Virus record (IMG/VR): IMGVR_UViG_3300029873_000373
DNA: 17,506 bases
From: a virus
Lineage: Duplodnaviria > Heunggongvirae > Uroviricota > Caudoviricetes
Strand: one strand, 5' to 3'
Shown here: one piece after another, positions 6,977-16,137 of the stretch
How the letters are laid out: every line of letters begins with the position of its first letter
How positions within the stretch are numbered: the first letter of the stretch is position 1
Made by a program: the position numbers and the translations under genes
Notes under the pieces: generated by a model
Databases searched by the model: none
What the model saw: the letters and a program-made list of their open reading frames with translations, nothing else
What the model was told of the DNA's origin: nothing

Positions 6977-7833
6977 GGGCGAACCTCCTTGTCAGAACCA
7001 TTCAGCCTGGAATCAACAAGTGCAGCGCCAAAAACAGCATCACCAACACGGTCGTACAGTTTGCTAGCCAGCGGAGATTCAACGGCCTTAAGCATTGGAT
7101 AAAGCTGGCTTGTCCAGATTTGATGGATTTCACGCAAATGCAGGTATACGCCTCTGGCGTTTCGTGCGACAGCTGACATATCAGACGCATCGGCACCTGA
7201 TAAACTCTTCTCCATCAGGTTAAAGGCGTTGATGTATGCCTCTTTGAACCGGGCAGCACGTTTACCAGTGAAGCCCATGGCAAGAAACGCAAAACCGTCG
7301 CGGGTGATTTGGTAACAAGGGAGCTTGCGTGTACCACCGTTCGGTTGATTTACCGAAATCGATGTCTCCGCAAAATTGCGGGCACAAAACTCAGGGGAAC
7401 AATCCAGAGTGCGGATCTTTTTCAGCACATCGTCATGACGCTTGGAGAAGAAGTTGGCAACAGCCAAAGAAGTGGTAACGGCCTGGCCGTTGTCAATGGT
7501 GATTTCAGGTTGAGTGAGGGCTGGGATCGTAGCCATGATGGCAGCCTCCGTTGACAGTGAAAAACTTCCACCACCGGAAACGCCAATTTCACTGGTGGTG
7601 AACTGGACGGGGTTGGCGTAACCGGCGTCAACGGAGACCGGCGCACCTTTCGGTGCCCCCGCCCAGCCCACCATAATCTGGATGTGAGCAAATGCGGACG
7701 ATAAAAAAGACGCTGGCGCGTCATACATCGCCGTTGACAATTTCAGGACGCCAATCCCGGCACCCGCTTTATAAGGTGCGGAGACAGTGTAACGTCCCGG
7801 AATTGCAGAATCAATATGCTGGTGGCGGATCAT
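6973..7833 (-). CDS. Rha-family phage regulatory protein with a ~99-aa N-terminal module of unknown function
   Basis: Rha-like core ITIDNGQAVTTSLAVANFFSKRHDDVLKKI ... TRDGFAFLAMGFTGKRAARFKEAYINAFN; ATG 7833 has SD GGGAGGTG. An in-frame internal ATG at 7536 with SD GGAGG lies exactly at the module/Rha junction. Confidence 0.7.
   Translation of the reverse strand: MIRHQHIDSAIPGRYTVSAPYKAGAGIGVLKLSTAMYDAPASFLSSAFAHIQIMVGWAGAPKGAPVSVDAGYANPVQFTTSEIGVSGGGSFSLSTEAAIMATIPALTQPEITIDNGQAVTTSLAVANFFSKRHDDVLKKIRTLDCSPEFCARNFAETSISVNQPNGGTRKLPCYQITRDGFAFLAMGFTGKRAARFKEAYINAFNLMEKSLSGADASDMSAVARNARGVYLHLREIHQIWTSQLYPMLKAVESPLASKLYDRVGDAVFGAALVDSRLNGSDKEVRP
7537..7833. repeat. Copy 1 of a ~300-bp duplicated coding module (N-terminal domain of the first Rha paralog)
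   Basis: Near-identical DNA to 8193-8492, e.g. shared CCCGCTTTATAAGGTGCGGAGACAGTGTAACGTCCCG and GACGATAAAAAAGACGCTGGCGCGTCATA. Confidence 0.85.
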
Positions 7834-8492
7834 AGGTGCACCTCCCGTTGATTACGACGGAACGCGGAGTGACCCTGGACGGTTTCAGCCTCATGGAATG
7901 CTTCAATACAGCTCTCGTAGTACCGCATTGTGCGCAGACTTAACCCAAGCTGAAGCATCATCAGACCATCAAGGGTGATGTAATAACCACGCAGGGAGTC
8001 ACCGTAGATGTGATAAGTACCCGGTATGAAATTGCGGGTAAAAAACCCGCGTGAGCAGTTCAGATACTCGATTTTGTCAACGATGTTCTGGTGCATGCGC
8101 TTGAAATGGCAGGCAACATGCAGGGAGAAAATAACGGCCTTGCCGTTGACGACTTCGATTTTTAGGAATGGGGAAGTTAGGACAGTAGCCATGATGGCAG
8201 CCTCCGTATGCAATGGATAACTTCCACCACCGGAGCTGCGAAACTCATGGGTGGTGAACTGAACAGGGTTCGCAGTACCGGCGCATACGGAAACCGGCGA
8301 GCCTTTCGGCTCCCCTGCCCAGCCCACCATAATTCTGGCGTGCGTGAGCGCGGACGATAAAAAAGACGCTGGCGCGTCATATATCGCCGTATGCAATTCC
8401 GGGCTGCGACCCCCGGCACCCGCTTTATAAGGTGCGGAGACAGTGTAACGTCCCGAAATTGCAGAATCAATATTTGGTCTTGAAATGATCAT
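7830..8492 (-). CDS. Rha-family regulatory protein paralog (divergent Rha domain) carrying the same N-terminal module
   Basis: N-terminal 100 aa about 75% identical to the adjacent gene; Rha-like IEVVNGKAVIFSLHVACHFKRMHQNIVDKI. ATG 8492 has no SD; internal ATG 8192 has GGAGG and may be the true start. Confidence 0.6.
   Translation of the reverse strand: MIISRPNIDSAISGRYTVSAPYKAGAGGRSPELHTAIYDAPASFLSSALTHARIMVGWAGEPKGSPVSVCAGTANPVQFTTHEFRSSGGGSYPLHTEAAIMATVLTSPFLKIEVVNGKAVIFSLHVACHFKRMHQNIVDKIEYLNCSRGFFTRNFIPGTYHIYGDSLRGYYITLDGLMMLQLGLSLRTMRYYESCIEAFHEAETVQGHSAFRRNQREVHL
8193..8492. repeat. Copy 2 of the ~300-bp duplicated coding module
   Basis: Same as above; differences are substitutions only, many at third codon positions of the minus-strand frame. 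Confidence 0.85.
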
Positions 8493-9549: not shown

Positions 9550-9622
9550 GATACTTTGTTATCCAACGATGTTAACCATAGGAACCCAAAGTATCAAGAA
9601 ATTCTGTTACTTTAGTATCAAC
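9550..9622. promoter_or_regulatory. Rightward-operator/promoter-like region (divergent PR/PRM analogue) with repeated operator motif
   Basis: Motif CAAAGTATCAA at 9587-9597, TTTAGTATCAAC at 9611-9622 and inverted GATACTTTG at 9550-9558. Candidate minus-strand promoter: -35 TTGATA (rc of 9592-9597), 17-bp spacer, -10 TAACAT (rc of 9569-9574). Confidence 0.5.
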
Positions 9623-9643
9623 AGCCATGAGAGGAGAAGAAAA

Positions 9644-10300
9644 ATGAAGTCTTTAGGTGAACGTCTCATCAACGCACGGCAAAAAGCTGGGTTAACACAA
9701 GATGCGTTGGCTAAAAAAGCTGGGGTCACCAGAGTTGCAATAAGTAAAGCCGAGCAAGGCCTTACAAAAAGTTTCAACGGTGACACCCTTTTTAAAGTTG
9801 CAGCTGCACTGCGGTGTTCACCGCAGTGGCTTCAGAACGGAGATGAAAAAGATAAGCATTGGGAAAATAATGTTAAGAGCTGCCCACAGAGAGACACAGC
9901 ACACTCTTACCCTGTAATTAACTGGGTTCAGGCAGGATTATTCGCAACTTCTGGTGATGACTACAACATGTATGATCAGGATAATTGGAGGCATTCTGTA
10001 AAATACGCTGGTGAGAGGGGGTTCTGGCTGGAAGTGCACGGAGACTCAATGACTTCGCCCGTAGGAATAACATTTCCTGAAGGAATGTCGATCCTTGTCA
10101 ACCCAGATAAAGAAGTTTTTTCAGGGTGTTACGTCATCGCCAGAAAAAAATCCACCAATGAAGCAACATTCAAAAAATATATTTCTGACATGGGAAAGGC
10201 GTTTCTAAAGCCCCTTAATCCACAATATCCAATCATAGAAATGGACAATGATTGCGAAATAGTAGGTGTTGTGGTTGATGCCAGATGGGATATTTTCTGA
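9644..10300 (+). CDS. cI: CI-like prophage repressor (XRE-family HTH plus LexA/S24 peptidase-like C-terminal domain)
   Basis: 218 aa; SD GAGGAGAAG before ATG 9644; HTH LINARQKAGLTQDALAKKAGVTRVAISKAEQG; S24 catalytic context GDSM ... ATFKKY; divergent from the early-right operon. Confidence 0.9.
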   Translation: MKSLGERLINARQKAGLTQDALAKKAGVTRVAISKAEQGLTKSFNGDTLFKVAAALRCSPQWLQNGDEKDKHWENNVKSCPQRDTAHSYPVINWVQAGLFATSGDDYNMYDQDNWRHSVKYAGERGFWLEVHGDSMTSPVGITFPEGMSILVNPDKEVFSGCYVIARKKSTNEATFKKYISDMGKAFLKPLNPQYPIIEMDNDCEIVGVVVDARWDIF

Positions 10301-14144: not shown

Positions 14145-14660
14145 ATGGCGTTAACACACCACGAACTCTGTCAGATTGCGTACAAGTTCCTTAAGCGCAA
14201 CGGGTTCAAGGTTTGCTTTCATGACCGCTTTGTTGCTGTAACCAGTACCGGAGAACAGCCAGATGCTATGGGATTCAGAAATTCAGCATCATGCCTGATA
14301 GAGGCGAAGTGTTCTCGTGCTGACTTGTTGGCAGATAGAAAAAAGCGTTTCCGTAAAAATCCCTCACTTGGCATGGGCGACTGGCGATTCTTTATTAGTG
14401 AGCCGGAAATTATTTCAGTTGAGGATTTACCTCCCGGCTGGGGATTACTTCACGTTGTTAACGGAAGAGTACGGAAAGTACATGGATGGCCCAGGGGTAA
14501 TTGCTGTTGGGGTAATCCTGACGATAAGCCATTTACTGGGAATAAGCAGGTTGAATGCGATTACATGTTATCTGCATTAAGGCGCATGGAGTTGAGAGGG
14601 CACCTTAATGAAATATATGACGGTGTGATTGTTAATAAGAAAGAAGGAAACGCGGCATGA
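14145..14660 (+). CDS. Candidate PD-(D/E)xK-fold nuclease (171 aa)
   Basis: SD AAAGGAGAG before ATG 14145; motif arrangement GEQPDAMGF ... CLIEAKCSRADL resembles the PD ... ExK catalytic core of restriction-endonuclease-like nucleases. Confidence 0.5.
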   Translation: MALTHHELCQIAYKFLKRNGFKVCFHDRFVAVTSTGEQPDAMGFRNSASCLIEAKCSRADLLADRKKRFRKNPSLGMGDWRFFISEPEIISVEDLPPGWGLLHVVNGRVRKVHGWPRGNCCWGNPDDKPFTGNKQVECDYMLSALRRMELRGHLNEIYDGVIVNKKEGNAA

Positions 14661-15415
14661 TCACTATTACCAAAGGGCGACTGCTGACAATCAAGCAGTG
14701 GCGCGAAACATACGGACCGGGTAGCAACGTTGTACTGCCAGCAGAAGAAGCGGAAGAACTGGCACGAATTGCACTGATATCGCTGGAAGCAGAGCCGGTG
14801 GCAAAGATTATAGCTCATTACCCATTAGGAGTTGACGTAGGCAAACAAAAGTTCGTGCAGGCCATTGGAGAGCTTCCTGACTTTGGCGGATATCTATTTG
14901 CCGCCCCGCCAGCGCCGGTAGTGCCGGAAGAAGCAACTCCGGAAAACGTAGAAATGCTCTCTGGCTATGTTTCCACGTACAAATTAACCGATAGCGAGCG
15001 CGATATTGCTGCCGAAATATGGAACGCCTGCCGCACCGCCATGCTTCAGTCCGGAAACTTTCGGGAAAGCAAGAATTCGTCAACCAATAATTTTCGGGAA
15101 ATCCCGGAAGCGTCAACCAGCTCTCCGGTAACTCCGGCTCTTCTGCCTGGTGGTTTCACCATTGAGGAGGCGAAGGAATTACATGAAGACCTGGTACGCA
15201 GCCACATAAGCAAGGCCTTAAGTGGCGAAAAGATGAAAAAGAAAGATCGCGATGCTGATTTGCGCTGGATTCATGGCGTTATAGTTCAGGCAGCGTGGTT
15301 TGTAAAAGCATCACTGGAGCAGAATGCACTATCGGGCAACTCTCCGGTAACTCCGGATGGTTGGATAAGCTGTAGTGAGCGAATGCCGGACGACAGGCAG
15401 GAGGTGAATCAATGA
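14657..15415 (+). CDS. Prophage protein with DUF551-like C-terminal motif (252 aa) and internal repeats
   Basis: ATGA overlap upstream; C-terminal PDGWISCSERMPDD resembles the start of the DUF551 domain (recollection); 33-bp imperfect tandem repeat and 17-bp exact repeat inside the gene. Confidence 0.6.
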   Translation: MITITKGRLLTIKQWRETYGPGSNVVLPAEEAEELARIALISLEAEPVAKIIAHYPLGVDVGKQKFVQAIGELPDFGGYLFAAPPAPVVPEEATPENVEMLSGYVSTYKLTDSERDIAAEIWNACRTAMLQSGNFRESKNSSTNNFREIPEASTSSPVTPALLPGGFTIEEAKELHEDLVRSHISKALSGEKMKKKDRDADLRWIHGVIVQAAWFVKASLEQNALSGNSPVTPDGWISCSERMPDDRQEVNQ

Positions 15416-15495
15416 GCTGGCCTGATGCAATCGTAACTCTGGGGGTGGTATTCGCAGCAGCGTTTGTTGTGTTCTCGATTTGTCGATGGGGATAA
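15412..15495 (+). CDS. Small hydrophobic peptide (27 aa, MSWPDAIVTLGVVFAAAFVVFSICRWG), absent from the ORF track
   Basis: Strong SD AGGAGGTGA 5-6 nt before ATG 15412, which overlaps the upstream stop (ATGA); one predicted transmembrane helix; ends 5 nt before the next gene. Confidence 0.45.
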   Translation: MSWPDAIVTLGVVFAAAFVVFSICRWG

Positions 15496-15499
15496 CCAC

Positions 15500-15742
15500 A
15501 TGTTCGCTTTGATTCAACGCGGTCAGATATACACGGACAGAGCCGGATACCCCGTGGTGATTACTCGCATCACTGAGCACTCAGTGTTCTTTCGACGGAT
15601 GGACGGACGATCCGGGCGGGTACGCATTGGTGAGTTAAACTGCCTGTTCGAACATATTGACCACCAGGAGTACCGCAAAATTCTCGCGGACACTGAGCAG
15701 GAAAAGCACCTGAAAAAATTACGAGCCATAAAAAGGAAGTAA
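15500..15742 (+). CDS. Small conserved prophage protein (80 aa; DUF4222-like by recollection)
   Basis: ATG 15500 directly after the small-peptide stop; MFALIQRGQIYTDRAGYPVVITRITEHSVFFRR-type sequence common next to xis in enterobacterial prophages. Confidence 0.6.
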   Translation: MFALIQRGQIYTDRAGYPVVITRITEHSVFFRRMDGRSGRVRIGELNCLFEHIDHQEYRKILADTEQEKHLKKLRAIKRK

Positions 15743-15745
15743 AGA

Positions 15746-15892
15746 ATGAATAAAGCATTTGAACGATGGGTCCACCAGCGTTACGGCAATCGCTATGACC
15801 TGACGCGAGATGTTGACGGCTTCTACTGTCGTGAAGTTGTGAAGCGAATGTTTGAAGTGTGGTGCCACTGCCGTGGGCTGAGTGTTGTGTGA
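15746..15892 (+). CDS. Small Cys/His-containing ORF (48 aa), absent from the ORF track
   Basis: SD AAGGAAG 7 nt before ATG 15746; MNKAFERWVHQRYGNRYDLTRDVDGFYCREVVKRMFEVWCHCRGLSVV; fills the gap up to xis exactly. Confidence 0.4.
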   Translation: MNKAFERWVHQRYGNRYDLTRDVDGFYCREVVKRMFEVWCHCRGLSVV

Positions 15893-15900
15893 GGTAATAC

Positions 15901-16137
15901 ATGGGCAATGTGATTCAACTGGCTCCCAATGAATGGGTTTGTGAAAGCGTTCTTATCGCAATTACCGGGCTCAAACCAGGCACAATTCTTCGGGCCCGGA
16001 AAGAATGCTGGATGGTTGGAAGAGAGTATATTCACGTATCACCAGACGGTAATCCAAAGCCTTCCAGTGAATGTATGTATAACAGAAAAGCAATAGATGC
16101 CTGGGTCGCCTCAATGAAAAACAAACAACCCAGGTGA
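15901..16137 (+). CDS. xis: Excisionase-like protein
   Basis: 78 aa directly upstream of the integrase; SD GAGG before ATG 15901; sequence type (...EWVCESVLIAITGLKPGTIL...GREYIHVSPDG...) matches enterobacterial prophage excisionase-like proteins. Confidence 0.75.
   Translation: MGNVIQLAPNEWVCESVLIAITGLKPGTILRARKECWMVGREYIHVSPDGNPKPSSECMYNRKAIDAWVASMKNKQPR

Follow-up and report, generated by a model that had tools for sequence, protein, structure and literature searches.

We analysed a 17,506-nucleotide (nt) stretch of DNA from a virus of the Caudoviricetes (IMG/VR record IMGVR_UViG_3300029873_000373; hereafter the window) and a small gene that lies near one end of it. A 27-codon open reading frame (ORF) on the + strand (15412–15495) encodes the peptide MSWPDAIVTLGVVFAAAFVVFSICRWG, with a predicted transmembrane helix at residues 6–24. 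Immediately upstream is an Ea22-like gene of 252 amino acids (aa) (14657–15415, + strand) with a shortened C-terminal DUF551 domain, and embedded in its last codons (Q-E-V-N-Q) is a Shine–Dalgarno (SD) site for the peptide, AGGAGGTGA (15399–15407, + strand) – a perfect 9-nt complement of the anti-SD sequence at the 3′ end of 16S ribosomal RNA. Four nucleotides separate the end of AGGAGGTGA from the peptide ATG (15412–15414), the GGAGG core ends 7 nt before that ATG, and the ATG overlaps the upstream TGA (15413–15415) to form an ATGA start/stop overlap (15412–15415, + strand), a candidate translational coupling junction. A gap of 4 nt separates the TAA stop of the peptide gene (15493–15495, + strand) from a DUF4222 gene (15500–15742, + strand), whose ATG is at 15500. 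An earlier, sequence-only reading of the window had described the ORF, a strong ribosome-binding site, the ATGA overlap and a product with the character of a single helix; all four were borne out at 15399–15495, and in the region gacaggcAGGAGGTGAatcaATGAgctgg the SD site, the junction and the ORF lie at the positions it had given.

By itself a 27-codon ORF is unremarkable here: 61 ORFs of at least 20 aa lie within 3.5 kb. Three things rise above chance: the SD site, the ATGA junction and a frame that is conserved among homologues. For the 9-mer AGGAGGTGA, shuffled sequence gives an expectation of 0.10 occurrences in the window, where there is a single one. We found no promoter-like or terminator-like sites flanking the ORF, no match to Rfam families at 15300–15600 and an ordinary local mRNA fold around the ORF (z −0.09). 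On these grounds we rejected RNA-level explanations of the locus, and since no promoter or terminator adjoins it and the RNA fold is not special, the peptide gene is taken to be internal to an operon.

We fetched 386 related loci, which were found partly by peptide patterns, and the frame is 27–28 codons long in all of them. Their 66 distinct 84-nt DNA alleles encode only 24 peptides, and none of these alleles contains a stop codon. For one peptide, MTWPEAFTTVGIAMAVALVVYSICRWG, there are 25 alleles; they differ from one another at 17 sites, of which 16 are third codon positions. Counting along a minimum spanning tree gave 101.5 synonymous and 60.5 non-synonymous changes over 19.8 synonymous and 58.2 non-synonymous sites, corresponding to a ratio of non-synonymous to synonymous rates (dN/dS) of ~0.20 for the peptide frame (binomial p 9e-24), while the other two sense frames have a dN/dS of ~1.8 and many stops. 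An intact arrangement of ATG, 27 codons and stop is present in 102 of the 104 distinct 130-nt contexts; the remaining two carry single-base indels, one of them within a G-run. Among 80 loci retrieved through the DUF4222 protein alone – a set unbiased for the peptide – the ORF is present in every one and intact in 79. These patterns of substitution and retention indicate that the peptide ORF is a genuine gene under protein-level purifying selection. The sequence-only reading had made its proposal depend on conservation of the frame in related prophages, and the frame has indeed been kept there.

The two non-intact contexts were inspected individually. Locus L092 (phage vB_EcoS-689R5, ON470583.1; 1196–1306) has a 1-base deletion just past the ATG, and locus L072 has an extra G in the G-run; both indels look like sequencing errors or rare decay. 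The sole annotated coding sequence that we found at the site, URC08898.1 (36 aa, from vB_EcoS-689R5), is an out-of-frame product of the 1-base deletion and was rejected as a record of the peptide.

The substitution pattern alone cannot identify the coding strand, because the wobble-aligned antisense frame shares the low dN/dS (0.22), as the geometry of the two frames would lead one to expect, and is open in all alleles. That observation, the plentiful short ORFs in the window and an old record that annotates a long antisense ORF at this place (ORF C38, Shiga toxin 2 (Stx2) phage II) would fit a chance ORF, or constraint that belongs to an antisense gene or RNA on the opposite strand. We give such explanations hardly any credence. 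An antisense start is not conserved (149 of 194 contexts have no ATG-started antisense ORF, and antisense lengths vary between 0 and 143 aa), neither a minus-strand promoter nearby nor an Rfam match was found, whereas the length, ATG, SD site and stop of the sense ORF are fixed in 102 of 104 contexts. It is this conservation of sense signals, with no conserved antisense start, that identifies the sense strand; the lack of antisense stops is accounted for by the codons chosen on the sense strand (Leu as CTG, Ser as TCG).

Related phages and prophages carry the gene at the same place. In identical or near-identical E. coli prophages and in phage PhiR5_1, an unannotated 84-nt gap lies exactly at the peptide ORF. 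The corresponding gap of YYZ-2008, a diverged phage, contains a 28-codon ORF, MMNWPEAFTAVGVAIAVAFILYSLFRWG, likewise with AGGAGGTGA and the ATGA overlap. By tblastn and locus fetching, the 27-codon ORF was also located in 933W (where it stands between L0139 and hokW/sokW), Stx2 phage II and ArgO145, in several vB_Eco phages and PhiR49_2, and in the virulent Vequintavirinae Av-05 and vB_EcoM_TH18; phage lambda was not among the 60 matches listed of 70 phage records. In blastn searches, 1007 of the 5426 complete E. coli genomes had the peptide unit, at most four times each, and 150 of its places were on plasmids, one carrier being a 96-kb plasmid that is P1-like in having a DNA polymerase III theta gene. 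Carriers comprise lambdoid and Stx prophages (933W, VT2-Sakai = Sp5), P1-like plasmids and virulent Vequintavirinae, and include the O104:H4 outbreak lineage.

A species-level contig scan returned Escherichia/Shigella only, plus two tiny contigs from other assemblies. The latter, from Acinetobacter idrijaensis (L097, 369 bp) and Xanthomonas pisi (L099, 431 bp), encode the peptide and are most likely E. coli phage contamination of non-enterobacterial assemblies. A wider taxonomic reach was considered and set aside, as three further viral scans with different lead sequences gave the same clades. We also observed an E. coli-type module (upstream gene, peptide ORF and Hok/Gef gene) in Actinobacillus phage vB_Apl-pPE4 (L089; PP818812.1; 659–1651). 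Its peptide ORF and the preceding 30 nt differ by one base from those of the E. coli phage ArgO145, and this near-identity implies either a questionable host assignment or very recent transfer.

The expectation of the sequence-only reading that the ORF would be missing from annotations holds for RefSeq/PGAP – none of 40 RefSeq rows sampled across the ranking has a coding sequence for the peptide – and for nearly all GenBank phage records, but not for some nr deposits, where it appears as a 27-aa ‘hypothetical’ or ‘prophage protein’. An exact-sequence look-up in a collection of 15 billion proteins did not return the window's own peptide; three homologues in that collection are 27/28-aa entries named ‘hypothetical protein’, ‘bacteriophage protein’ or ‘prophage protein’. 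Some nr peptide entries are named ‘DUF551 domain-containing protein’, and in the 90%-identity clusters of two homologues (P0005 and P0020) 27-aa peptides are grouped with DUF551 proteins of 121–185 aa. This clustering is an artefact of partial ORFs and could mislead annotation transfer. The peptide has no match to the DUF551 profile (PF04448) and is not part of DUF551 polypeptides, so the label comes from the neighbouring gene. The possibility that the helix is a C-terminal anchor fused to DUF551 was rejected, as the 121-aa and 185-aa cluster mates end in ...PPQEVNQ and have no helix.

Family and literature searches gave a similar picture. We found no family match for the peptide in Pfam, PHROG, NCBIfam, PADLOC (including its defence families), PDB or Rfam. 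Family and structure libraries returned only subthreshold noise (KdpF, DUF883_C, B12D and phrog_35838), and one homologue has a non-significant match (E 0.085) to an unannotated PHROG, while the window peptide matches none. A full-text literature search for peptide substrings found nothing, nor was the peptide found in the supplements of enterohaemorrhagic E. coli translatome papers, an Enterobacteriaceae microproteome preprint and the Pro-SMP finder. No copy was found in K-12 CPS-53 (yfdS–yfdT), which would account for small-protein studies of K-12 not having picked up the peptide.

The junction with the upstream gene is conserved too. Of the 172 distinct contexts that could be resolved, 170 have the ATGA overlap. 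It is direct in 146; the other 24 are of the YYZ type, with two ATGs of which the earlier overlaps the upstream stop. In homologous contexts a GGAGG-type SD precedes the ATG by 6–10 nt. With a stop/start overlap and an SD site inside the upstream ORF, both conserved among homologues, the arrangement is that of a translationally coupled pair, in which reinitiation would be expected. It resembles ATGA pairs with termination–reinitiation coupling (Huber et al. 2019, Nat Commun 10:4006, as cited in PMC11188072) in its four-base overlap and in the position of the SD within the upstream coding sequence. Unlike usual ATGA coupling, the junction here travels with the small gene, and unrelated upstream proteins end in EVNQ, EVK or EVNR.

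The SD site and ATGA junction are kept behind at least six unrelated upstream genes and before differing downstream genes. By upstream gene, the distinct contexts divide into those with a complete DUF551 C-terminus (65), a truncated DUF551 as in the window (46), an LISVEDILR-type protein with no Pfam match (34), a protein of the 933W L0139 type (16) and several others (about 11). The upstream proteins end in ...EVNQ (79), QEVK (18), EVNR (10) and EVRQ (9). Unrelated proteins share these C-terminal residues because the codons concerned are the peptide's SD; it follows that the breakpoints of recombination are upstream of the SD and that SD, ATGA and ORF move as a single block. The persistence of SD and ATGA amid differing neighbours thus marks the unit as a self-contained mosaic module. 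In the window, the upstream gene keeps the first 16 of 68 DUF551 positions (15358–15415; ...GWISCSERMPDDRQ then EVNQ*), while the domain is complete in related loci, among them L115 and YYZ gp05. The window gene has thus undergone an in-frame deletion of roughly 45–55 codons that preserved the SD/ATGA junction, and with its 46 distinct contexts this truncated allele is common.

These contexts bear on whether the peptide could be a dedicated membrane partner or anchor of the upstream DUF551-type (Ea22-like) protein, made in a fixed ratio with it through translational coupling. A DUF551-type gene is upstream in 111 of the 172 resolvable contexts and ATGA coupling is nearly universal, as such a partnership would predict. 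However, the same module stands behind at least five unrelated non-DUF551 proteins, the peptide remains intact where the domain has been cut to 16 residues (the window and the 46 distinct contexts of its type), and the K-12 DUF551 protein YfdS has no peptide after it. We therefore regard a dedicated DUF551 partner as improbable.

Downstream neighbours are equally varied. In 107 of 194 contexts the next gene is DUF4222, starting at +4 nt; a mok/hok cassette follows at about +150 nt (~130–155 nt) in roughly 40 of the 194, including 933W (L084, 1501–1950). Further neighbours include other toxin–antitoxin pairs, an overlapping ORF in Av-05 and a convergent KilA-N gene. Given the ~130–155-nt spacing, the hok promoter region should abut the 3′ end of the peptide gene; we treat the cassette as an independent insertion at the module boundary. 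The close spacing to DUF4222 raises the question of a cis-acting relay or leader ORF with a functionless peptide, which would hand ribosomes over to a start 4 nt on, prevent polarity or stall them at the RWG-stop. TGGGGA in the last codons of the peptide could be the SD of DUF4222, and the C-terminus is strongly conserved. Against this, purifying selection at the amino-acid level extends over the full length of the peptide and takes in its N-terminal WP[D/E]A, and the peptide is kept where the next gene is ~150 nt away with its own promoter (hok), on the opposite strand or unrelated. A purely cis-acting role thus seems highly improbable.

We then considered the peptide itself. Residues 6–24 form a 19-residue hydrophobic stretch with a grand average of hydropathy (GRAVY) of 1.46 and a summed Hessa-scale value of −1.85 kcal/mol, flanked by W3 and W26; across variants, GRAVY ranges from 0.91 to 1.46 and the Hessa-scale sum from −1.85 to +1.6 kcal/mol. 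The peptide is thus predicted to consist of a single bilayer-spanning segment and little else, which would place it in the class of small (≤50 aa) single-pass membrane proteins. Eight residues are invariant among homologues (M1, W3, P4, A6, A15, S22, R25 and W26) and three nearly so (G11, C24 and G27), whereas positions 7–14 vary yet remain hydrophobic and the core accepts exchanges among V, I, L, M, F, A and T. The invariants cluster at both interfaces – W3-P4-[D/E]5-A6 and S22-x-C-R25-W26-G – in addition to G11 and A15.

On balance, we lean towards reading the ORF as a genuine gene whose 27-residue product is a single-pass microprotein of the inner membrane, belongs to an unnamed family confined to Escherichia/Shigella phages and acts through helix contacts. 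From its context we infer that the gene would be transcribed after induction or infection as an internal gene of an early accessory operon, which extends from the immunity region as far as xis-int. Its own very strong SD, ATGA termination–reinitiation coupled to whichever gene is upstream, or both would provide for efficient translation. As 27 residues are too short to leave the ribosome tunnel before termination, insertion into the inner membrane would be post-translational, with residues 6–24 spanning the membrane and Trp3 and Trp26 at its two interfaces. Early in lytic development, the peptide may then engage a second membrane protein, encoded by host or phage, through a specific helix–helix contact, and would not simply disrupt the membrane non-specifically. 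The contact is suggested by the combination of invariants at the interfaces and small residues (G11, A15 and S22) with a variable core, and the copies in virulent Vequintavirinae point to a role in the lytic cycle.

Several observations count against the microprotein reading, among them the low dN/dS of the antisense frame described above. The partial use of peptide patterns in collecting the 386 loci biases that set towards intact copies, and we found no ribosome-profiling or proteomic record of the peptide in the literature and supplements searched. The entropy profile along the helix has no peak near 100 degrees of helical periodicity, and the net charges of the flanks are so nearly balanced that the orientation in the membrane is uncertain, an inside C-terminus being weakly favoured. 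Given the missing 100-degree peak, we considered but do not claim conservation along one face of the helix; G11, A15 and S22 are spaced i, i+4 and i+11.

Small single-pass proteins that modulate larger membrane proteins are well known in E. coli and include KdpF (29 aa), AcrZ (49 aa), MgtS (31 aa), MgrB (47 aa) and PmrR (29 aa), and YohP (27 aa) provides a size-matched precedent of post-translational insertion. The phage peptide resembles these modulators in length, single helix, interfacial Trp, charged flanks, strong translation signals and in having been overlooked by annotation, and binding between transmembrane helices, its proposed mode of action, would be a further likeness. It differs from them in that it has no sequence relationship to them, is phage-borne, lies in an early accessory operon and is ATGA-coupled. 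KdpF (TIGR02115) was the best subthreshold match, with 14.7 bits against a cutoff of 26.85 and over only 12 residues, which does not place the peptide in that family. By analogy, the peptide would work like the small single-pass modulators, or possibly like type I toxins, yet it belongs to none of their families.

The comparison with type I toxins leads to a different proposal: a membrane-depolarising or pore-forming toxin, made early, whose task would be to switch off the host's energy metabolism or to set the time of lysis. The sequence-only reading had suggested something similar, namely that the product might be a toxic host-interference factor. The peptide shares with type I toxins a short hydrophobic sequence and a predicted inner-membrane location, and its size and hydrophobicity resemble those of TisB (29 aa), DinQ (27 aa), ShoB (26 aa) and Hok. 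Hok/Gef cassettes are frequent neighbours: the peptide gene often lies ~150 nt upstream of hok/sok, in the roughly 40 of 194 contexts noted above, or beside other toxin–antitoxin pairs. Yet hok cassettes are independent units and the peptide is equally present without them. Profiles of type I toxins in Pfam and NCBIfam – Hok/Gef, Ldr, TisB, Ibs and other families – gave no match at E up to 1. As for a cis antisense RNA antitoxin, we found no Rfam family at 15300–15600 and no minus-strand promoter-like site near the ORF, although an undescribed RNA is possible. The SD is of maximal strength, in contrast to the occluded, repressed translation typical of type I toxins, and the specific residues held invariant at either end of the helix speak for a defined partner. 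A depolarising toxin is thus rather unlikely in our judgement.

The sequence-only reading had cited lambda Kil as an example of a small, toxic membrane peptide from a lambdoid early-left operon. The parallel is inexact. Kil is likewise a small product of such an operon, but it is a soluble 47-residue inhibitor of FtsZ assembly rather than a membrane peptide, whereas the window peptide is a predicted transmembrane helix. PHROG and Pfam families, including any Kil family, gave no match to the window peptide at E up to 1.

The placement in an early-left-type operon, also part of that reading, was upheld. From ~10.4 kb to the end of the window, the + strand is a single train of genes. A repressor gene (9569–10300) heads the accessory genes, followed by the Ea22-like genes, the peptide ORF and DUF4222, and then by the excisionase gene (15901–16137, + strand) and the integrase gene (16193 to the window end, + strand); this order, from repressor to xis-int, is that of lambda's leftward early operon.

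The neighbourhood is that of the exo-xis region of lambda and Stx phages, whose genes (orf60a, orf63, orf61, orf73, ea22 and ea8.5) have been studied (PMC3824215, PMC10789677 and PMC10834534). Here the peptide gene comes immediately after Ea22-like/DUF551 genes; the order in 933W is L0141 (orf73-like), L0140 (ea22-like), L0139 and then the peptide gene. Unlike the named exo-xis genes, the peptide is not in the gene lists of those three papers. With the gene unannotated inside the exo-xis region, the peptide may contribute to effects credited to the annotated genes there. We tentatively extend the microprotein reading in this direction: the peptide could possibly serve as an early effector dedicated to binding a single inner-membrane protein of the host (a transporter, a sensor kinase, a division or envelope factor, or a phage receptor or entry component, for example) and be common to temperate lambdoid/Stx phages, P1-like phage-plasmids and virulent rV5-like phages. 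Such an effector may contribute to the lysis–lysogeny balance and Stx prophage induction phenotypes ascribed to annotated exo-xis genes.

Two further features of the window were observed. Between DUF4222 and the excisionase gene, a 48-aa ORF (15746–15892, + strand) is a small conserved gene of the same train with an uncharacterised function; it matches phrog_3871 end to end (E 5e-35) and has a RefSeq annotation, WP_001030156.1. On the minus strand, 7591–8435 holds two tandem isrK + C4 units ~656 nt apart, in which an Rfam scan placed isrK Hfq-binding small RNAs at 7703–7779 and 8359–8435 and C4 antisense RNAs at 7591–7678 and 8247–8334, all on the minus strand. These tandem units are a duplicated P1/P7-type c4-ant immunity element within a lambdoid prophage.

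Thousands of conserved microprotein families have been predicted (e.g. PMC11188072), and the peptide is a new, unnamed case among phage-encoded small membrane proteins missed by annotation, one that is real and widespread. About one in five complete E. coli genomes carries the gene, the Stx2 phages 933W and VT2-Sakai (Sp5) being among its carriers, and it has no RefSeq call, family model or paper. If it is merely one more small membrane protein with no assigned role, its value would lie mainly in corrected annotation; it stands out mainly by its prevalence in pathogenic E. coli prophages and by its tidy mobile coupling cassette. This cassette – SD, ATGA and 27 codons – rewrites the last codons of the preceding gene and is a clear example of small genes travelling as mosaic modules, as well as a simple target for annotation pipelines. 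Genes of the exo-xis/ea region influence lysogeny and Stx prophage induction, and an overlooked, presumably strongly translated membrane peptide encoded there is a plausible hidden contributor.

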